Shown here: piece after piece, positions 12,169 to 54,513 of the stretch
How positions within the stretch are numbered: position 1 is the stretch's first letter
Layout of the letters: every line of letters starts with the position of its first letter
IMG/VR virus record: IMGVR_UViG_3300049929_000026
Span: 32,001 to 96,000 of that record
Strand: one strand, 5' to 3'
Source of the DNA: a virus
Length of the DNA: 64,000 nucleotides
Notes under the pieces: model-generated
Told to the model about the DNA's origin: nothing
Database searches by the model: none
What the model saw: only the letters and a program-made list of their open reading frames with translations
Position numbers and translations under genes: made by a program

Positions 12169-12726
12169 TTACGGGGCGCCCAGATTGATCGGGATAAACT
12201 GGTGGACCTGGATGCTGTTGGCGTTGCTCGTGCCCCAGGTCGCAAAGAAATCGAGCTTCTGGGCCGCGGTCTCGTCGAAGCCCGTGCCAACAGCAGGAGC
12301 ACTCGCGGGCATCAGCAGCGTCTTTGCTTCGCCGGCAACCGTCGTGGCCCCTGCAGCCTCCGACGTAAACAAGCCCTGGTGCATAAAGTTCGCTGCCGTG
12401 CCGCCGCCGGTGGCGCGCAACGTGAGCAACCATTCCATGTACCAAGACACGTTGGTTTTCGCGGTTGAGCTCAGCGTCATGGCGCCGCTGGTCGCGACTA
12501 CGACAGAGCCGAGACGCAGGTCCAAGGTGAGAGTGCCCGGAGTCGTTACTGTGGTAATGCGCCCGGCAGCACGCACGAGCAAAGAGTTGCCAGGCTGCCC
12601 AAACCACTCTGTAGGGAACGTCCACAGCGCACCCAGCGGGAGCAGGCTAGTGGGGGTCGTACTTGCCGTGAGAGCAGTCCCATCTACCTTCGAGGCGATA
12701 GCGACTGCACAGTATCCTGATTGCAT
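12169..12726 (-). CDS. Hypothetical virion protein
   Basis: Beta-rich 185 aa in the tail gene cluster; AAGGA RBS. Confidence 0.6.
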   Translation of the reverse strand: MQSGYCAVAIASKVDGTALTASTTPTSLLPLGALWTFPTEWFGQPGNSLLVRAAGRITTVTTPGTLTLDLRLGSVVVATSGAMTLSSTAKTNVSWYMEWLLTLRATGGGTAANFMHQGLFTSEAAGATTVAGEAKTLLMPASAPAVGTGFDETAAQKLDFFATWGTSNANSIQVHQFIPINLGAP

Positions 12727-12747
12727 TCTGGTCCTTCTTTCTCTGGA

Positions 12748-13146
12748 TCACGTTGCCGTGAATTGAATTTGAAACTTCGGCGCATGGTCCTCGGGCGCGC
12801 CGTTCGGCAGTACGCCCAAGCTCTCGACGGTCAGCCCTTCCCAAACGGGCATGAGGCGGCGGCGCATCTCTTCAAATGAAGGCTGCTCGGGGAATTCGAA
12901 CTCTTGGACGTGCTCGATGATCGCGCCGTCCTTGAGTGCTTGAACTTCGAAATCGAAGGGACTAGGTACCTCGGTGCTGCCTGCGCAACGCTTGTAGGGG
13001 CGCGGCGCAGGCAGCCAAAATGCGATCCGCAACGTCACCGGGTGACCCGCAACACCAGCCGCGCCAGTAGCGGTCCATGCGAGCGCCGCGATCGGACCTT
13101 CGGAGCTGCCGACGAGAATGATCTTGCGAAGTTCGAGCGGGTTCAT
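12748..13146 (-). CDS. Hypothetical protein
   Basis: ORF from MNPLELR in operon order. Confidence 0.55.
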   Translation of the reverse strand: MNPLELRKIILVGSSEGPIAALAWTATGAAGVAGHPVTLRIAFWLPAPRPYKRCAGSTEVPSPFDFEVQALKDGAIIEHVQEFEFPEQPSFEEMRRRLMPVWEGLTVESLGVLPNGAPEDHAPKFQIQFTAT

Positions 13147-27524: not shown

Positions 27525-28157
27525 CTAGCCGCCCACGAACACGCCTGCTGCCGGCGCCGAAGCGCCCGGTGCCCCGATTACGGGAGCAGGCCCGAACTGC
27601 ACCGGACCGAGCGGTGTGCGGCCACCGAGAATGACCTGACCGGTCAGGATGCACATCCCATCCTTGACTTGGATCATGCCGCCGCCGTGCGCCATGTAGC
27701 ATCCGCTATCCTGGCTGATTTCGAAATGGCCACCGAAGCAGGAGATGGTGATCTTCTTGTTCTTCTCGTCGACCACGATGGCCATGCTGTCGCCGACGAT
27801 GATGGATGCGCTCTTGTCTTTGAGGAACACGCGCGAATCGAAATCGGGACCAGTCGAGTGCAGGCAGGTTTCCCCGGCGCCGAGCTCAGCGGTGACCGAA
27901 GCGGTGCGCGTGTCGCGACCAGTGATGACGACGCCACCGCTAGTGCCGGGGACGTTAACCTTGATTCCTTGCGCGTGCCCGTTGTCGTTGCTCGGGTATG
28001 GGAACGCTGTGACACCGAGAGCCCCCATCATCGGCGCGTCACCAATGTCGGGCGCGTCGTTCGGATCTTCGCCGACCCGCGTCGTCTTCGCCTGAACAAG
28101 CAGCACGTTTGTTTTCGGGTCGAGCCTTGCGCTCCCTATATCGATGAATTCCGTCAT
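27525..28157 (-). CDS. Baseplate spike protein (Mu gp45-like)
   Basis: LG....P, GRDTR and LGAGET.LHS motifs; follows the hub gene; start MTEFID. Confidence 0.7.
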   Translation of the reverse strand: MTEFIDIGSARLDPKTNVLLVQAKTTRVGEDPNDAPDIGDAPMMGALGVTAFPYPSNDNGHAQGIKVNVPGTSGGVVITGRDTRTASVTAELGAGETCLHSTGPDFDSRVFLKDKSASIIVGDSMAIVVDEKNKKITISCFGGHFEISQDSGCYMAHGGGMIQVKDGMCILTGQVILGGRTPLGPVQFGPAPVIGAPGASAPAAGVFVGG

Positions 28158-40737: not shown

Positions 40738-40822
40738 GGTTCAACCTTTCGTTCCCGCGGCGCGCGGGTACGTTCTGTGTTCGGAGTTGGCGCCGCGGTC
40801 ACTTGACAACGCGCGGCAGTGA

Positions 40823-47530: not shown

Positions 47531-47935
47531 TCACGTCCCAGTTGCGTCTCGATCAAGCTCCGCCATCTGGGCTATGAATGTGGCGGTAAGCTTCTGTTTC
47601 TGTTCGAGAATCCGAATGCGTGAACCATGGTCATTCACTCGGCGGCGGAGGTCCTTGCATTCCAGGCCGATTTCGATCGTGTTCTTCTCCAGGTCGTCGA
47701 TCGCTTTGAGCGTCTCTTGTGGCAACAGATCCTCCAGTGCGCGCTTGCTCACGTAGAGGGCGCGCCCCACGCGCTTAGCGTAAGTGGTGGCGTTCCTGCG
47801 CTCAAGCGACCGTAGGAGGCGGTAGACGTACTTGCGGCGCGTCGCGCGCGTCATGCTGGCGAGCTTCGGGTGGCTGGGCTCGAGGATTTTGGCGAGCTCC
47901 ACGAGCAGGAACCATCGGTCGCGGCGGGGCCTCAC
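47531..47935 (-). CDS. Hypothetical basic/coiled-coil protein, paralog A
   Basis: MRPRRDRW...ERR...Y.KR.G...V; GTGA overlap with HNH stop. Confidence 0.65.
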   Translation of the reverse strand: MRPRRDRWFLLVELAKILEPSHPKLASMTRATRRKYVYRLLRSLERRNATTYAKRVGRALYVSKRALEDLLPQETLKAIDDLEKNTIEIGLECKDLRRRVNDHGSRIRILEQKQKLTATFIAQMAELDRDATGT

Positions 47936-48444
47936 GGGTCGAGTCCTGGCAACGGGATATCGCCGCGCGCTTCGAGCCATCGGCGGCGGATATCCACCTC
48001 ACTCAGATCGGGGCGCCGGGCCAGCCAACGCGGGAGCGTCAGGTCGGTCTTGTTGCTATTGCAGGGCTGGCAGGCCGGAGCGAGATTCCCCTCATCGTGT
48101 CGACCGCCGCGCACGAAGGCGACGATGTGGTCGAGCACGAGCAGATCGGCCCGTGTTCCACAATACAAGCAGGAGTAGCCGTGAAGGCGTTCAAGACGCC
48201 AGCGCAGTCCGACTGGGTGAGGCGAGCGACGGGCCGCGATTGCGCTAAGCGGCTGCCGCAGTGATTCCGTGATCGTCAGGTCCTCATCCGGCGCCTGGCC
48301 CCACCGGCCGAATGCACGTTCCTTGGCCAGCCGAAGCGCTCCCAAGCCACCACCATCCGCATCCAAGCTCGACTCGAAAATTAGACGCTTGAAAGCCTCC
48401 TCGAACCGCTCCCCGTCATAGGCGGTACCGCGTCGGCGCGTCAC
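47932..48444 (-). CDS. HNH endonuclease (Zn-binding HNHc)
   Basis: CLYCG..LDHIVAFVRGG....NLAPACQPCNSNK. Confidence 0.9.
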   Translation of the reverse strand: MTRRRGTAYDGERFEEAFKRLIFESSLDADGGGLGALRLAKERAFGRWGQAPDEDLTITESLRQPLSAIAARRSPHPVGLRWRLERLHGYSCLYCGTRADLLVLDHIVAFVRGGRHDEGNLAPACQPCNSNKTDLTLPRWLARRPDLSEVDIRRRWLEARGDIPLPGLDP

Positions 48445-48815
48445 GGCAGCAACTTCCGTTCGATTTCCGCGAGGCGTAGCGCCTGGCCACGGATGAGCGC
48501 TCCCTGCGCCTTTATCGTCGCTCTCAGCCTTTTTAGTTCCGCCTCCAGAAACTCCACCCCCGGATCGCGCTGCCCGTGTTCTTTGGCGCTAGCCAACAGC
48601 GGCAGGCAGACCCTTTTGACGAAGATGTCTCCACCGGCTCGCTTCGTGTATGCCGCCGAATCGCGACGCTCAGCGCTGCCAACGAGCCGGCGAACCGCTT
48701 CGCGTTGGCGTTTCCTGTCCTTGTCGGCGATCTTCGTCCAGAACGCCGGGTGGTGTTCAGGTAACGCACCGAGAACCTCCGGCATGGAGAGCCAGCGTTG
48801 GCGACGAGGTCTCAT
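48441..48815 (-). CDS. Hypothetical basic/coiled-coil protein, paralog B
   Basis: MRPRRQRW...ERR...YTKRAG; ATGA overlap. Confidence 0.65.
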   Translation of the reverse strand: MRPRRQRWLSMPEVLGALPEHHPAFWTKIADKDRKRQREAVRRLVGSAERRDSAAYTKRAGGDIFVKRVCLPLLASAKEHGQRDPGVEFLEAELKRLRATIKAQGALIRGQALRLAEIERKLLP

Positions 48816-49168
48816 CCTGGCCAGCTCGGTAGCAACGAGTCGACGCCATCGGGGCATTTGCATCTTCCCGGACGCTTATGGCACTCGGCGCAGAGATCTA
48901 ACTCCGCATGCTCGGCGAAAGCCTCGTCCCCCACCGCCATCCGTATCTGTTGCTCTATCAGAGCTCGACCGCGAGCCTTCACATCGATCGCGTCACGGAG
49001 CCTCTCGTTGATTACGGCTCGATTGGATTTCTGGCGTTTGGTCGGTTGAGTACTCGGGGCATCGGATGCAGCGAGTACTCGTTCGGCGGCGGCTGGGGTG
49101 AGCCACCGCCTTATTTGACCTCGTTCGGCGTCACTTAGGCGCGCCTTCCCGGTCTCCCCCCCCCTCAC
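48812..49168 (-). CDS. Hypothetical protein with Cys cluster
   Basis: CAECH....CKC; coupled overlaps. Confidence 0.6.
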   Translation of the reverse strand: MRGGETGKARLSDAERGQIRRWLTPAAAERVLAASDAPSTQPTKRQKSNRAVINERLRDAIDVKARGRALIEQQIRMAVGDEAFAEHAELDLCAECHKRPGRCKCPDGVDSLLPSWPG

Positions 49169-49623: not shown

Positions 49624-50555
49624 TCCGCCGCCTGGGCCGCCGCCAGACCGCGTTCCATCGCCTCAGCGAAGGCAGCCTCGCTCATCCGCATCAGCACCCC
49701 GCCACGCCGCCCCTGGCCGCCCTGGCGCGGCTCAGTGGTCAACTGACAACGTGCGCGTCCGGTGCGGTCCTGAAAGCTCCTGAGGCCCGGCACGGCGCGC
49801 TTGGTCGCGAACCAGATGTCGTGCGCCTCGGCGTCCGCGGCGTGCGCTCGGTTCAGCGCCTCCCGAACTAGCTTCGCCCGGCGCGCCTGCTCGGACCGGT
49901 TGATCTTCCCCTTCCGGACTGGGGCGGGCTCGACGCAGGCGACGAACAGCTGGGCCGCGTCGTCGCAGAGTTCAAAGGCCAGCGCCGCGTAAACTCCGAG
50001 CCCCTCGTTGGTGTTCGTATTGCTACCCGTCCGAGTTGGGTCGTGTTGGCCCACGCGGCCGTCTGAGCCCTCAACATACCGATCCTTGGCTCCGAAGCCT
50101 TGGTCAGCCCGATACTGTGCTCTAGGGGCGCTGTAGCGCTTGCAGAGGGTGTTCTGGGTGGCGGCCGGCACAAGTCGCCAGGCTGCCATCAGGTGCCGAT
50201 GCAGCTCGATCTCGCCGATTCCGAGTACGCCTACGCCTAGCTGCATATCGGTAAAATGGTGCTTGTAGCTCCCTGCGCCGTCGAGATTGCCGGTCCCCCC
50301 AACCGAGCCGCGCTCAATTTGAGAGACCACGCCGGCCAGGGTGCCGCTTGCGCCCATCGCGGCGTCACCGCAAAGCAGAAACCACGCGAGTTGGTCGTCG
50401 TAAGACCCGTCTCGGGCTGGCCGAGGTCGGCGGTCTTTTGGAAGCTCGCGCGGCGACTCGACGGCCACGCGCGGCACGAGGGTCAATGTAGGCGCTAGGA
50501 CAACCGACTCACTGGTTACCGGGATCAACTCGGTAACCGCTTGCAATTCGGACAT
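49620..50555 (-). CDS. Hypothetical protein
   Basis: 311 aa; AAGGAG RBS lies inside a hairpin. Confidence 0.7.
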   Translation of the reverse strand: MSELQAVTELIPVTSESVVLAPTLTLVPRVAVESPRELPKDRRPRPARDGSYDDQLAWFLLCGDAAMGASGTLAGVVSQIERGSVGGTGNLDGAGSYKHHFTDMQLGVGVLGIGEIELHRHLMAAWRLVPAATQNTLCKRYSAPRAQYRADQGFGAKDRYVEGSDGRVGQHDPTRTGSNTNTNEGLGVYAALAFELCDDAAQLFVACVEPAPVRKGKINRSEQARRAKLVREALNRAHAADAEAHDIWFATKRAVPGLRSFQDRTGRARCQLTTEPRQGGQGRRGGVLMRMSEAAFAEAMERGLAAAQAAE

Positions 50556-50563
50556 ATTTGAGA

Positions 50564-50640
50564 CACTCCTTGGGGGGTCAGGGCGGTTCCAGGAGTGCTG
50601 AGACCCCGAGGCGAGCTGTGGCGGCTGGCTTCGGGGTTTT
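50564..50640. promoter_or_regulatory. Two hairpins: RBS-covering stem and terminator-like stem
   Basis: CACTCCT..AGGAGTG; ACCCCGAG..TTCGGGGT followed by TTTGTT. Confidence 0.45.
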
Positions 50641-50646
50641 GTTCGT

Positions 50647-50919
50647 TCAACTGCTAAGCAAACTCTCCTGCTCAGCGGCCCGCAGTTGTCTGAGCTGCGC
50701 TTCGATCCGCTGAGAATCCACGGTTGGGACGCCGTCGCGCGCCCAAATGCTCCAGATCCTCTCTGCTTGGCAGAGGCTCTCGCTGTCGCCGGTCGCAGCC
50801 ATTACGCAGCACCTATCGATGACCCAGAGCACGTCGTTCGGCTCTAACCCGCCTATGTCAGAATCAGTGCCAGCTTGCGACATTGTCTTCAGAAACATCC
50901 CGCGGATCCTTTCCGTCAT
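50647..50919 (-). CDS. Hypothetical protein
   Basis: 90 aa; starts 31 nt after the degenerate repeat. Confidence 0.45.
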   Translation of the reverse strand: MTERIRGMFLKTMSQAGTDSDIGGLEPNDVLWVIDRCCVMAATGDSESLCQAERIWSIWARDGVPTVDSQRIEAQLRQLRAAEQESLLSS

Positions 50920-50950
50920 CAGTACAGCGCCTAGTACAACGCCTTCCCGA

Positions 50951-50986
50951 CTCTCAACACCTGACTCTTTTTCTCTTCGTCAGCGG
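50951..50986 (-). CRISPR. Isolated degenerate CRISPR repeat
   Basis: 50951-50966 is identical to the last 16 nt of the repeat (AGTCAGGTGTTGAGAG); upstream AGAGAAAA partly conserved. Confidence 0.65.
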
Positions 50987-51057
50987 TGGTCACGTGACAA
51001 CACGTTACACTGCCTTGCGGCGGTTTGCCACTGTGAGGCGCTGGCGAGCGCCACAAA

Positions 51058-51633
51058 TCAAGCGGCTTTTGCTTTTCCAACCTGCTTCTGCAGCCGGGCG
51101 TTCTCCCGCTTCAGCGCCGTCACCTCCTTCGTGAGCGCCGCCACCTCGGTCTTTAGCCGGGCATTTTCCAGCTCTAAGCTGCCCTGCCGCTGGACGGCCC
51201 GGGTTGACGGAGCCAATGGGGCTTTCTTCTCGATCACGCCGTTGACGATACGTCGCACCTCCTTGGGGCTCGGCGCGCAGTGGTTTGCGTTGATGAACTG
51301 ATCGAGCGACGCCTCGACGAGCTGAACATTCGCCGTGTCAGCGGTGGCGCCTGGCGCCAGAAGGGCATGGCAAGACTCCACTCCAAGCGCCCGCACGCGA
51401 TCCACGCCGTAGATCTCGATCGCCTGGATCACGTTCCCATAACGGTTGAGCCCCATCGCGTTTGGGAACTCCCGCTGCAGGAAGTCACTGAACATCGGCG
51501 TCTCTGGCGTCTTCCAGATGCCCTGCGTCTCTACTGCTCGAAGCTCGAGGAAGAGATCAACTCCGCTCTCCAGCCAGTTAGCTAGGAGCGTACGGATTTT
51601 GGATACGGCTTGTTCATATGCTTGATTGCTCAT
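51058..51633 (-). CDS. Putative DNA-binding protein with C-terminal coiled coil, located between CRISPR repeats
   Basis: LELRAVETQGIWK....FSDFLQREF resembles DUF3102/partition-type helical domains; zipper LELENARLKTEVAALTKEVTALKRENARL; GGAG RBS. Confidence 0.7.
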   Translation of the reverse strand: MSNQAYEQAVSKIRTLLANWLESGVDLFLELRAVETQGIWKTPETPMFSDFLQREFPNAMGLNRYGNVIQAIEIYGVDRVRALGVESCHALLAPGATADTANVQLVEASLDQFINANHCAPSPKEVRRIVNGVIEKKAPLAPSTRAVQRQGSLELENARLKTEVAALTKEVTALKRENARLQKQVGKAKAA

Positions 51634-51643
51634 TTTAACTCCA

Positions 51644-51750
51644 CTCTCAACACCTGACTTTTCTCTGATCCGTTCCGAGAGCTGGATTCGCACAGCTGAG
51701 GACGGGTGCCCAACCTCTCAACACCTGACTTCTCTCTGATCCGTTCCGAG
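51644..51750 (-). CRISPR. Minimal CRISPR array: two 36-nt repeats, one 35-nt spacer
   Basis: CTCGGAACGGATCAGAGARAAGTCAGGTGTTGAGAG at 51715-51750 and 51644-51679 (1 mismatch); spacer GTTGGGCACCCGTCCTCAGCTGTGCGAATCCAGCT; 54 nt after the cas stop. Confidence 0.85.
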
Positions 51751-51804
51751 CGGTCATCAAGACCGCCAGCAAATTCGCGCTCTTGCCGTCCGCTTTGCGA
51801 GCGG

Positions 51805-53430
51805 TCACTCCGCGGCCCCTGCTTCTGGGGCCAGAGAATCCGAACCGCTCGCAGTCTTGACGCCCTTCTTCCCGAGTCCGCGCTTCTTCGCGCCGGCCTC
51901 CTGCATCTTCGCTAGCGCGTGTTTCTTGCCCACATCGAGTAGATGATTCGCGCATGCGATACCATCCACCGATGCCTTCAATTGGCATTGCTCGCAACGA
52001 AACCAGGCCGGCACTCGCACAACCCGTTTCCAGACCTCGCCGTCGATGCGTTTGAACTCAACGACGTTGTCGCGGTGCTCAACGTTCGCTTCCGATGTGT
52101 GCGAGCAAGCCGGACATCGCTGCGAGACGAAGCGCGCGTTCTTGTAGTGCGTCCGGATCCCCACCTTGGTGAGCGCCCGATCGATCGTCTGCTGGCTTTC
52201 GTAGTAAGGCCACTGATGGATCAGTCGCTTCAGCTCGCTGTGGGCCTGTCCCTCGGTCTGCTTCTCGAAGTTCTCCCGGATCCCGGTCATGTTCTCCATA
52301 AACACGTCGCTAACTCCATGAAGCGTGCACCAGCGAGCGAAGTCCGCCGCGCGCTGCCGGATCCGGTCCTTGACTCGCCGCGCTTCTCGATCGCCGATGG
52401 CAGTCAGCGGGAGTTCGCGACGCTTCACGCCGCGTCCGCGGGACCCGCTGCCATGGGCACGCATTCCCTTTGCGATGCGGCGTCTCTGCGCGGCATATTG
52501 CTCACGCATCGCGATGATGTCAGTCCCCGGATCTTCCCACGTTGTGCCGTCCTCGGACATCGCCAGCATGAACACGTTGATCCCGAAGTTGCAGGCTACC
52601 GCATTGCCTGCCTTGTAGCCTTCGGCTCGGTGCTGAGACCACGAGATGAGCGCGAACCATTTACGCTTTCGCTCGTCGAACTTGATCCCGACCTTTCCAA
52701 GCTTGATCGACGCCTTCTCTTCGAGTTCGAACAGAGCTCGGTCCCTAGCCGCGCGCGCTGCCTTCATTACCTTGTCAGTGGCGTCTTTCGGGAGCGGTTT
52801 CTTGGCGGATCGCTCGAGCTCCACCACGCCTGCTCGGTTGCCCGCTCCACCCACCAGTTGCCTCCAAAGAACCACGGCGTTGCCGCCGCAAGGTGCAACA
52901 ACGAGAGACGTTGCACCTTTGCCGGTGCCAAAGAAAGGGAAGGTGAGCCGGGCATCGTCAGGTGTCCCTGAGACTTCGCAGTTGCGTCCCTCCGAGAAGA
53001 AGGACTTGCCGGACCCTTCGAACGTCGGCACGCCCGCGCGACCAGCCAGCAGATCCTTGAGATGCTGCCCAGCGAAGCGCGAAAGTATGTGGTCCGAGGT
53101 TTCGCTACACAGAACGTCCCCGGGCGGGACGTGAGCCGCTGCGTAGTCTTTGCCTGACTTCTTCAGCATGTACGCGCATCGTCGCTCCATGCCGCGAGCC
53201 CAATGGAATCGCAGCCGCTTACGGACATCGTTCTGCCAGGTCGTGCTTGGTTTCTGCTTCTCCGATATCGCCTCGAGTTGGGAAATGGCGCCAGGGTATA
53301 CGTCACGTAGCGAGAGATTCAGCGCCATCGGCAGTGTCTCGCGAAGGGCTCGCATTCGCGCTCCGAGTTCGCTCCAGCTACCATTTGCTGGCTTGACGAT
53401 CTCAACCTTGAGCGTCCCTGCCAGCTTCAT
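51805..53430 (-). CDS. cas12f: Cas12f1/TnpB-like RNA-guided protein, RuvC-I Asp replaced by Asn
   Basis: ACNFG (N281), GSGSRGRGVKRRELPL, FMENMTGIR (E379), QWPYYESQQTI, SQRCPAC..FRCEQC, VDGIACAN (D489); GGAGG RBS. Confidence 0.85.
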   Translation of the reverse strand: MKLAGTLKVEIVKPANGSWSELGARMRALRETLPMALNLSLRDVYPGAISQLEAISEKQKPSTTWQNDVRKRLRFHWARGMERRCAYMLKKSGKDYAAAHVPPGDVLCSETSDHILSRFAGQHLKDLLAGRAGVPTFEGSGKSFFSEGRNCEVSGTPDDARLTFPFFGTGKGATSLVVAPCGGNAVVLWRQLVGGAGNRAGVVELERSAKKPLPKDATDKVMKAARAARDRALFELEEKASIKLGKVGIKFDERKRKWFALISWSQHRAEGYKAGNAVACNFGINVFMLAMSEDGTTWEDPGTDIIAMREQYAAQRRRIAKGMRAHGSGSRGRGVKRRELPLTAIGDREARRVKDRIRQRAADFARWCTLHGVSDVFMENMTGIRENFEKQTEGQAHSELKRLIHQWPYYESQQTIDRALTKVGIRTHYKNARFVSQRCPACSHTSEANVEHRDNVVEFKRIDGEVWKRVVRVPAWFRCEQCQLKASVDGIACANHLLDVGKKHALAKMQEAGAKKRGLGKKGVKTASGSDSLAPEAGAAE

Positions 53431-53443
53431 TGAAAATCCTCCA

Positions 53444-53595
53444 AGTGATTCAAGGCAACCATCGACCGGCTAGTCAGGTGTTGACCATGCGACAAGCGCG
53501 TGGTCCTGCGGCCGAAGCCACTCAGCGAGTACGAAGACTCGCTATCTCGACGGTAGATCGCCGGTATTACCGGTCGTTGGCTGCCTTCAATCACT
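53444..53595 (-). ncRNA. Putative tracrRNA
   Basis: 13-nt anti-repeat TCAACACCTGACT (53472-53484); 26-bp closing stem 53444-53469/53570-53595 with a G-U pair on the minus strand; internal hairpin AGCGAGT..ACTCGCT. Confidence 0.75.
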
Positions 53596-53934
53596 GTTCC
53601 AAAATAGAACCGACTCATGTAGACCTGCTCCTGTCCGTTTACGCGGACCATGCCCGCGGTCGTGTGATAGCGACGCGCGGGCAACTTCAATCGCACCCCC
53701 CGGGCTGGCTGTCAAGTGACCACCAAAGCCCGGCGCCTCTCGTTCCTGCTTGTCGCTACTGACGTGATTCCAGTGATTACGCGTCTTTGCGGCGTCCCGG
53801 TCGCTCTCCGGGCGCCCCGGAGTTGCCTGGGCGCAATGTTCGCTTTAGCCTAAACAACAGGTCCAAGCACGTCGGCGCAAGCCGAAGGACGCCTCCGCCA
53901 CGGGGTAACGCTGCCTAGCCCGGTAGGGCACGCA

Positions 53935-54513
53935 ATGTTCAACTTAGACAAATTCGCCAATGCGGTGCTGCTCGTGTTGAACGAGAGTCCGTCGCCGCCT
54001 GGGTTGACGGTGCTTCTGAAGGTGCTGTTTCGGTCGGACTTCGCACACTATCAGGAGCATTTGCGTTCGATCACCGGAGTGGAGTACGTGGCACTCGAGC
54101 GCGGACCTGTTCCCCACGACTACCGCTCGCTTCTTCAGAAGCTAGCAAGCCGGGGCGACGTTGTGGCCGAACGTGTCGACGTTGCCTCGGGCTACAAGCC
54201 CATGGAGTGCTACCGCGCGCTCCGCCGTCCGGATCTCGCGGCCTTCGATCCGAGCGAACTTGCGGTGCTACGCGCGGTCATTGCGGCGGACGCGGGCAAA
54301 ACGGGAAAGCAGCTGAGCGACGAGACACATGCCGAACTCCCTTGGCGGGCTGTCTGGCGCGACGGGGAAGGCGAATCCGCCCAGATCCCCTATGCCCTCT
54401 CTCGCTGGGAAGAGAACCGTTGCAATGCGGCGGACCTCACTCAAGCCGCAAACGAGCTGCAGCGAACCGATGTGCAGGCGGTGATTGCGCAACTTGTTCG
54501 ACCAACTGGCTAG
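53935..54513 (+). CDS. Panacea-domain (DUF4065/SocA-like) antitoxin
   Basis: LLKVLFRSDFAHY......ITG.EY.AL.RGPVP, LSDETH...PW and IPY motifs. Confidence 0.85.
   Translation: MFNLDKFANAVLLVLNESPSPPGLTVLLKVLFRSDFAHYQEHLRSITGVEYVALERGPVPHDYRSLLQKLASRGDVVAERVDVASGYKPMECYRALRRPDLAAFDPSELAVLRAVIAADAGKTGKQLSDETHAELPWRAVWRDGEGESAQIPYALSRWEENRCNAADLTQAANELQRTDVQAVIAQLVRPTG

Follow-up and report, generated by a model that had tools for sequence, protein, structure and literature searches.

A small gene between two array repeats as the probable accessory gene of a phage Cas12f-like module lacking the RuvC-I aspartate

Why should a protein-coding gene occupy the position of a spacer between two repeats of a CRISPR-type array? 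This question is raised by a locus in the IMG/VR virus record IMGVR_UViG_3300049929_000026 (here referred to as G000; 137.6 kb, estimated to be 86% complete), of which we analysed a stretch of 64,000 nucleotides, bases 32001-96000, referred to as the window. The module is read on the minus strand throughout. It consists of a gene for a Cas12f-like effector, a very short array and, in the interval of exactly 657 nt between repeats 2 and 3 (51643..50987), a gene for a 191-amino-acid protein that we call the partner. An initial annotation made from the sequence had proposed this gene in the spacer slot; its homologues and a structural model with a mean predicted local distance difference test (pLDDT) score of 94.4 indicate that it is real. 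The 657-nt "spacer" is probably a conserved accessory gene of a phage type V-F-like module whose effector lacks the RuvC-I aspartate. Its location between repeats is one lineage-specific arrangement of a conserved effector-partner operon.

The evidence that carries this conclusion is the association of the two genes in ten loci, namely, the window and the related loci L004-L010, L014, and L015. Scans with an effector profile produced L004-L008 from viral contigs, L009 and L010 from contigs of metagenome-assembled genomes, and three further hits, L011-L013; a scan of metagenomes with a partner profile produced L014 and L015, each of which begins with the 3' part of an effector gene. In 9/9 loci other than the window, a Cas12f-like gene is immediately followed, on the same strand, by a partner homologue, and this synteny extends to loci with an effector identity of 28-30%. 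Divided by search, a partner homologue is present in seven of the ten loci found with the effector profile (L004-L010) and beside the effector in both loci found with the partner profile; the three loci without it (L011-L013) are cyanobacterial TnpB-like hits with 22-24% identity. Five viral records and the window's own record contain one partner match each, always adjoining the effector. In the loci examined, the partner family was found only beside RuvC-I-less effectors, immediately downstream and on the same strand. The co-occurrence with cas12f homologues that the initial annotation had proposed as a check is thus present in all nine other loci, and a stand-alone partner gene, which it had named as a refutation, was not found among those examined.

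Partner homologues are rare elsewhere. Counted in an exhaustive representative library, there are 57 at E<=1e-3 and 39 at E<=1e-10, most of them 190-220 amino acids long, and the best has an E value of 1.7e-42 and 46% identity. Among 401 sampled genomes of the phylum of G006, one of two seed genomes, the only full-length match to the partner profile was G006 itself, and 13 further genomes of that phylum gave weak hits only from profile position 85 on, mostly coiled coil. A profile of the N-terminal domain (N-domain) matched only the second seed genome, G007, among 401 sampled genomes of the phylum of G007, and neither the phages of GenBank nor the plasmids of PLSDB contained a partner match. 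Scans of viral contigs with single proteins revealed no close relatives of either protein. The partner-profile scan with alignment A3 gave two metagenome loci and no viral loci, that with alignment A5 gave none, and that with alignment A6 gave only the contig of L004, which was already known. Apart from a terminase-small-like hit in L005, the related loci share none of the other genes that neighbour the module in the window.

Pairwise identities of effectors and partners correlate across 8 loci (Pearson, 0.75; Spearman, 0.45; 28 pairs, which are not independent). A complex prediction for the effector and the partner gave 0.00 and 0.00 against a mark of 0.32 and counts for neither side. Taken together, the synteny, the single copy per record, and the rarity elsewhere support the association, in keeping with the earlier suggestion that the gene encodes a possible effector partner. 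Given its constant travel with a Cas12f-like protein that is predicted to be disabled for cutting, the 191-amino-acid protein probably serves an RNA-guided DNA binder as its dedicated partner or regulator.

Effector and partner proteins

The effector family comprises 26 relatives found at E<=1e-81 in a 90%-clustered database, plus 1 weaker relative, and forms a clade of compact effectors of ~500-620 amino acids that is array-bearing and mostly phage-borne. When compared with PDB sequences, the family profile matched AsCas12f with an E value of 9e-30, other Cas12f chains at 2e-25 to 1e-21, and entry 9n9c, "Nuclease-deactivated Cas12f," at 4e-11. The PADLOC models Cas12u3 (1.2e-21) and Cas12f (1.5e-20) also matched the effector, and its NCBIfam guided_TnpB and Pfam matches fell below the cut-offs (for Cas12f1-like_TNB, 24.2 bits versus 26.3). 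It is therefore, as expected of type V-F, a small TnpB-derived effector with RuvC and zinc-finger (TNB) domains and with Cas12f as its nearest relative.

The intact D-E-D triad of type V-F was not found in this clade. In a HMMER alignment, Asn281 of the window effector (within "vNFGv") lies opposite the catalytic Asp of the AsCas12f motif "GIDLG"; Glu379, Asp489, and the four zinc-finger cysteines (both CxxC pairs) are kept. The RuvC-I column of the 26-member alignment contains N in 21 sequences, H in 3, R in 1, V in 1, and D in none. In the same alignment, the RuvC Glu is retained in 23/26 members (as read by eye), conservation of the RuvC-III Asp reaches at least 90%, and none of the four zinc-finger cysteines varies. 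The 8 effectors translated from the loci have N or H at the RuvC-I position in 8/8 cases, the Glu in 7/8, and the Asp in 8/8, so that an Asp at RuvC-I was seen in 0/26 family members and 0/8 locus proteins. A contig piece from a soil metagenome run of a different study is identical to the window over 52498-52783, with the Asn codon included, and hence the substitution is not an assembly error of one sample. This run (X2) gave no coverage of 51496-51943 and hence no second view of the array. From these residues, the family is predicted to be a Cas12f-like clade that would not cut DNA. A search for Cas1 (PF01867) alone gave no match in the 137.6-kb record, at its 86% completeness. Adaptation genes are found in many, not all, V-F loci.

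Two side observations concern the effector. About half of the 26 homologues share a short C-terminal tail, ...AAE (the C terminus of the window effector is encoded at 51805-51830), and the partner homologues P0030, P0031, and P0053 also end in ...AAE; this tail may be a docking or degradation tag. The sole GenBank phage record matching the effector is KX853510.1 (Virus Rctr197k, 119944-121173), a distant match (25.6% identity; E, 1e-13) annotated as a transposase-like protein.

For the partner, the N termini of the homologues place the start at ATG 51633 and disfavour an upstream GTG at 51693. AlphaFold2, run with the family alignment (the model with a mean pLDDT of 94.4), predicts a helical domain at residues 1-138 and a single long helix at residues 142-190. 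This helix matches only coiled-coil/bZIP types, and these weakly (bZIP, HALZ, and ZapB), which agrees with the leucine-zipper tail that had been noticed at the outset. The N-domain has no Pfam, NCBIfam, PADLOC, or PHROG family match. It was modelled alone (pLDDT, 92.4) and aligned by VIA to 48,161 PDB representatives. ParB-family DNA-binding domains made up 5/9 of the best rows and covered 99-113 of the 138 residues: ParB 6s6h (Z, 7.1; root mean square deviation, 3.7; 113 residues aligned), Spo0J 1vz0 (Z, 6.4), KorB 8qa8 (Z, 6.4), KorB 1r71 (Z, 6.1), and SopB 3mkw (Z, 5.3), with every Z score under the tool's caution line of 8. In one library protein, P0059 (420 amino acids), ParB_N and HTH_ParB are followed by residues 215-339 that resemble the partner N-domain (32% identity; pairwise E, 1e-22). 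In the ESM Atlas, the first structural neighbour of the partner is a ParB_N/HTH_ParB cluster (TM, 0.50). The partner itself has no Pfam match to ParB_N (the CTPase domain) or HTH_ParB. Based on the models, we regard it as a ParB/KorB DNA-binding-domain-like domain joined to a leucine zipper and infer that it binds DNA. In another homologue, P0070 (467 amino acids), the partner domain is N-terminal and is followed by ~320 residues without a Pfam match.

The helical motif had initially been described as DUF3102/partition-like. The DUF3102 half of this description was rejected: the partner gave no hit to DUF3102 (PF11300) at E<=0.1, 0/8 N-domains gave one at E<=10, hhalign comparisons with 4 DUF3102 open reading frames (ORFs) returned probabilities of 0.4-0.7%, and no match to PF11300 was obtained in G006, where a partner homologue is encoded. 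The partition-like half stands in weakened form, with weak ParB/KorB fold support and the one domain fusion in P0059. Feature neighbours in the ESM Atlas include DUF3102-bearing clusters (0.91-0.92), at the level of a lead only.

Locus anatomy and its variation

The features of the locus, in the order in which they are read, are as follows.

53470..53487, minus strand: anti-repeat of a putative trans-activating CRISPR RNA (tracrRNA), ~40 nt upstream of the effector start, with a 13-nt core complementary to the 3' end of the repeat
51805..53430, minus strand: effector gene, 541 amino acids, Cas12f/TnpB-like
51751..51804, minus strand: leader, 54 nt, from the effector stop codon to repeat 1; starts with a short hairpin-like motif
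51715..51750, minus strand: repeat 1, 36 nt; 3' end related to that of the L009 repeat
51680..51714, minus strand: spacer 1, 35 nt, the sole ordinary spacer
51644..51679, minus strand: repeat 2, 36 nt, 35/36 identical to repeat 1
51058..51643, minus strand: partner gene, 191 amino acids; GGAG at 51642..51639, ATG at 51633..51631, stop at 51058
50987..51057, minus strand: 71-nt noncoding tail of the "spacer"; a GC hairpin without a U-run, then a palindrome copy (50986-51001) abutting repeat 3
50951..50986, minus strand: repeat 3; 5' half degenerate, 3' 16 nt (50966..50951) exact
50647..50919, minus strand: 90-amino-acid ORF with its ATG 31 nt past repeat 3; outside the conserved module

Repeat 2 is followed by a T (51643), the GGAG, five bases, and the ATG, with a repeat-to-ATG spacing of 10 nt. 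The initial annotation had placed the ribosome binding site (RBS) 1 nt and the ATG 10 nt past repeat 2, with 657 nt to the next repeat-like sequence; re-derived from the coordinates, these distances are exact. Repeat 3 shares 67% identity with repeat 2 in an ungapped comparison, and its exact 3' 16 nt are the portion able to pair with the anti-repeat. The repeat-end 16-mer is present in three copies within 800 nt on this strand and nowhere else in the 137.6-kb record (<=2 mismatches). At <=3 mismatches, the window contains 4 matches versus 0.31 expected, and 4 were reached in 0/100 shuffles; the anti-repeat, at 53472-53487 on the opposite strand, accounts for the fourth of them. One exact copy of the 16-mer was also found in each of 17 viral contigs, and as 0/17 encode the effector or the partner, we consider these to be chance matches. 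The window repeats have no self-structure (z, +0.69 and +0.36), which fits a tracrRNA-dependent system. A promoter and terminator scan of 50500-54000 returned 0 promoter-like sites and nothing near the partner gene, and no Rfam family matched within the window. The 90-amino-acid ORF has no homologue in any related locus and no family match.

The spacing of the two genes varies between loci. Measured from the effector stop to the start of the partner match, the gap is -4 to +23 nt in L004, L005, L006, L010, L014, and L015; in two of these six loci, the stop and start codons overlap. The array fills the gap in the window (171 nt) and in L009 (543 nt), and in the distant loci L007 and L008, the gap is roughly estimated at ~+211 nt and ~-128 nt, respectively. 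The partner is translationally coupled to the effector in most loci, and the overlapping stop and start codons suggest stoichiometric co-production.

The arrays of the relatives have 36-nt repeats with ~72-nt spacing on the same strand as the gene. There are 12 repeats in L006, 6 in L009, 9-10 in L004, and 3 in L005; L010 has ~9 upstream and ~12 downstream, so that both genes lie between repeats. In L004 and L006 the array follows both genes, in L005 it precedes them, and in the window and L009 it separates them. Six of the ten loci, the window being one of the ten, have no repeat at the effector-partner junction. The L009 repeat has nearly the same terminal sequence as that of the window, a 12-nt anti-repeat lies ~40 nt upstream of the L009 effector gene, and broken repeat ends are found 43-60 nt ahead of its partner ATG. 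In L005 (5949-5990), the sequence reads GGAGGTG and then TTG, and the GGAGG, with which a third, degenerate repeat terminates, serves the start codon of the effector. In L010 (5240-5270), decayed repeat ends reach the effector start, GAAGGAATG... and then ATG. A repeat end abutting an RBS thus recurs in the window, L005, and L010 and is not a conserved feature of the partner gene. Since the arrays occupy variable sites and the gene pair is conserved, the partner is not cargo of the array; rather, the array sits between operon partners. In the simplest reading, the effector and partner genes form an operon around and into which arrays and solitary repeat units shift, and repeat 3 is a leftover or a stand-alone unit.

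Further observations were made on the arrays. The L006 phage carries a satellite repeat-spacer-repeat unit 12.5 kb from the main array, followed by a terminator-like hairpin (L050 1452-1565; G002:C1 about 27950-28064), and two solitary repeats on the opposite strand, at 12696-12737(-) and 13072-13115(-). Dispersed guide units seem to be a habit of these phages. By eye, the same short hairpin-like motif follows the effector stop in the window (51790-51804, minus strand) and in L009 (2346-2360).

As for possible targets, the 36 nt that follow repeat 2 match only themselves in the phage record (next best match, 12 nt), and for the 36 nt that follow repeats 2 and 3, the best non-self matches of 10-12 nt are at chance level. 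If these sequences were guides, they could address only their own locus, subject to a target-adjacent motif (TAM). The arrays of the related loci target neither one another nor G000, and that of L006 matches only further repeat units in its own record.

Outside the module, a SocA/Panacea-domain (antitoxin-type) gene (53935-54513, plus strand; Pfam E, 3.5e-13) is divergent from the tracrRNA/effector region, and small ORFs at 47531-47980 and 48441-48863, both on the minus strand and paralogue-like by eye, flank an HNH-like ORF.

Proposed mechanism and rival explanations

In the mechanism that we propose, the tracrRNA, effector, mini-array, partner, and probably repeat 3 would all be transcribed from the minus strand, and the tracrRNA would pair with the last ~13 nt of each repeat. 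The guide-loaded effector would bind matching DNA without cleavage and block transcription or replication of the target, analogous to silencing or regulation by Cas12m, TldR, and dCas12f. The partner would be a zipper-dimerised protein with a ParB/KorB-type DNA-binding fold. Our preferred reading, to which we assign slightly less than an even chance, is that the partner acts with the effector at bound sites, reinforcing or extending silencing; that it is the module's dedicated transcriptional regulator has a sizeable minority chance.

Processing of the transcript could add a layer that would be confined to the lineage of the window. CRISPR RNA (crRNA)-type maturation at repeat 2 would split the effector/crRNA part from the partner mRNA. 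If maturation is set by the tracrRNA pairing site, namely, the last 13 nt of the repeat, cleavage would occur within this site or ahead of it, and the mRNA would keep the handle. As repeat 2 ends 1 nt before the RBS, binding of the effector-tracrRNA complex to the retained handle would mask the RBS and the AUG. Partner translation would hence be under feedback, and negative rather than positive coupling is predicted. In the most elaborate form of this proposal, which we consider doubtful as a whole, the guide-loaded effector, which would not cut, would bring the partner, a zipper-dimerised and ParB/KorB-like DNA binder, to DNA specified by the guide and initiate silencing, bridging, or tethering of a competitor element or host locus there, and the crRNA handle in the partner 5' untranslated region (UTR) would let the effector-tracrRNA complex set partner translation and so balance both proteins.

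Several points weigh against the conclusion that the 657-nt interval is the accessory gene of a module with a non-cutting effector. The context sample of 10 loci is small, with ~20 other effector and ~50 other partner homologues outside it, and two close pairs drive the figure for the co-divergence of both proteins. The effector keeps 2/3 RuvC residues, and some altered RuvC triads stay active according to part of a 2023 survey of TnpB and Cas12 proteins (PMC10691335), so that "dead" is a prediction. As the N-domain of the partner belongs to no sequence family, its DNA binding is only inferred; Z scores of ~7 are common for helical domains, chains of the Rubisco factor Raf1 score alike (Z, 7.0, 6.6, and 5.6), and a Foldseek search of the partner returned nothing at E<=0.001. 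The window array holds one ordinary spacer only, and this spacer has no other match of >13 nt in the 137.6-kb record or the fetched loci and hence no target there. Finally, the locus was present in no RNA run searched, and co-transcription, the tracrRNA, and processing stay predicted.

The strongest rival, a tentative explanation that we nevertheless take seriously, is that the partner is merely an autoregulator of the module without a role at guide targets, like the helix-turn-helix (HTH) proteins of rpoE-dcas12f loci or Aca proteins. Its DNA-binding-type fold and the dimer suggested by the zipper would suit such a function. In the portion of the dCas12f-sigmaE study considered here (PMC13472631), the HTH protein recognises inverted repeats ahead of its own gene and is not needed for targeting, and in the window copies of a 16-bp palindrome lie on either side of the locus, at 50986 and 53708. 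However, this palindrome is phage-wide, with at least 23 copies, and of the related loci, L005 has a single full copy, L009 has a single partial one, and the remaining 7 have none. Moreover, the partner is exclusive to the effector clade and co-diverges with it, in contrast to the loose HTH linkage (R2, 0.19) given in the same portion of PMC13472631, and the overlapping stop and start codons suggest stoichiometric co-production.

The palindrome, GTGGTCA-NN-TGACCAC, often lies in intergenic regions or at gene ends of the 137.6-kb record; within the window it is found at 40795, 47153, 49735, 50986, 53708, 55391, 55987, and 60099, with one copy abutting repeat 3 and another in the tracrRNA/promoter region. 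Given its genome-wide copies and a full copy in L005 alone of the related loci, we rejected it as the partner's operator. Its probable role is that of an operator for a phage-wide regulator or of a transcription signal.

The initial annotation had favoured another explanation, which we consider unlikely: crRNA maturation at repeat 2 would release or create the partner mRNA and so couple partner expression to the maturation of the guides, and repeat 2 together with the 5' end of the gene might form a self-derived guide. The end of repeat 2, at distances of 1 nt from the RBS and 10 nt from the ATG, is in favour of it, as are the L009 repeat-end copies 43-60 nt before the partner ATG, the L005 degenerate repeat that bears the effector RBS, the location of repeat 3 at 31 nt before the next ATG, and the common direction of all parts. 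Against it, the repeat-to-start layout is not conserved, as 6/10 loci lack a repeat between effector and partner. Judged from the anti-repeat pairing, a retained handle would sooner hinder than enable translation; the record contains no second target for the 36 nt that follow repeat 2; and the absence of the locus from the RNA runs bears on this explanation as well.

Far less probable still is that the three "repeats" are a 5'-UTR or regulatory motif ahead of genes and that the locus lacks a functional CRISPR array. Only one ordinary spacer is present, 2/3 copies directly precede start codons, and the copies have no intrinsic structure; yet relatives have regular arrays of 6-20 repeats with related 3' ends beside homologous effectors, two loci have an anti-repeat ahead of the effector, and repeat 1 precedes a 35-nt spacer rather than a gene. 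That an unrelated phage gene was inserted by chance into a decaying array, as the degenerate third repeat and the minimal array might suggest, is scarcely credible given the synteny in 9/9 other loci and the finding of the partner alone in no collection searched.

Nuclease-dead relatives of Cas12 and TnpB (TldR, dCas12f-sigmaE, and Cas12m) are natural RNA-guided transcription factors, and the associated protein, or its absence, defines their output. The effector clade described here is always trailed by one small, unnamed protein family with a DNA-binding-type fold and a leucine zipper. If, as in our preferred reading, the two proteins cooperate, this would be a new natural link of RNA-guided DNA recognition to a DNA-organising or DNA-repressing protein as well as a compact two-part tool; recruitment of the partner by the effector, if true, would make it a second, independent "dead Cas12f plus output protein" system, in soil phages. 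If the partner is only a regulator, the clade remains an uncharacterised phage CRISPR-interference system. In either case, the gene-between-repeats layout provides a simple experimental handle on the separation of array transcripts from mRNAs.

Comparison with known systems

In the main texts that matched our searches, neither the partner family nor its pairing with the effector is described; the supplementary information of PMC10691335 may list the clade among V-U* groups whose catalytic sites are altered. The words "ParB" and "coiled" are absent from the main text of PMC10691335, and "coiled" is absent from the dCas12f paper (PMC13472631).

The closest likeness is to type V-F (Cas12f/Cas14, former V-U3), which the module resembles in effector similarity, 36-nt repeats, an adjacent array, and a tracrRNA anti-repeat. 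The array beside the genes has two full repeats and one degenerate repeat in the window and 3 to ~20 repeats in the relatives. The anti-repeats of the putative tracrRNAs, 13 nt in the window and 12 nt in L009, were recognised by sequence complementarity alone. Unlike in type V-F, the RuvC-I Asp is replaced clade-wide, no Cas1 was found in the record, the module is phage-encoded, and there is a dedicated accessory gene.

Like dCas12f-sigmaE, the module ties a nuclease-impaired Cas12f relative to a transcription or DNA-binding protein, that is, it would combine an RNA-guided binder with an output protein. According to the portion of PMC13472631 considered here, dCas12f-sigmaE is C-terminally truncated, mostly arrayless, and equipped with a single guide RNA and an extracytoplasmic function (ECF) sigma partner, and is located on Bacteroidota chromosomes. 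The truncation takes away part of the RuvC site, and the sigma factor bears a C-terminal extension. Here, in contrast, the effector is full length and keeps the E and D residues, arrays are present, and the carriers are phages; the partner has no sigma-factor (Sigma70) Pfam match, unlike the dCas12f-sigmaE partner. The same portion of PMC13472631 shows that a dead Cas12f is able to bring a partner protein to DNA and that a linked HTH protein can be a mere autoregulator.

Cas12m (type V-M) and Cas12c have altered or unused RuvC sites and still interfere by blocking transcription, as is predicted for the effector described here. NED is the commonest triad in our effector family, and Cas12m clades with a "NED" triad are mentioned, as uncharacterised, in a part of PMC10442227; in that part, Cas12m has no tracrRNA, a REC2 insertion, and no accessory protein described. 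A Cas12m chain was absent among the 28 PDB sequences matched at E<=1 by the effector family profile. A Cas12m of 610 amino acids with an intact D-E-D triad occurs in myxophages, according to the available part of 10.64898/2026.09.14.751636. TldR proteins, as summarised in abstracts, are likewise phage-borne, nuclease-dead TnpB relatives that act as RNA-guided repressors; they differ in having a fixed omega-RNA-type guide beside the regulated gene instead of arrays, and a ParB-like partner does not appear in those abstracts.

For the partner, the whole-domain structural matches of the N-domain that scored best were the DNA-binding domains of ParB, KorB, and SopB (Z, 7.1 to 5.3), and the PDB entry title identifies KorB as a transcriptional repressor. 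In contrast to ParB and KorB, the partner has neither the ParB_N CTPase nor an HTH_ParB match, and its dimerisation would use the leucine zipper.

In the mini-CRISPR units of the CreTA/CreR type, a solitary or degenerate repeat is followed by a pseudo-spacer and lies beside a gene, and the pseudo-spacer partly matches a promoter that Cas represses. Repeats 2 and 3 of the window similarly lie beside a gene; unlike in CreTA/CreR, the sequences that follow them match only their own locus. Taken together, these comparisons lead us to rate the module, as judged from its sequence, as a candidate nuclease-impaired type V system with a new dedicated accessory gene, in which the gene-in-array layout is a lineage-specific curiosity.

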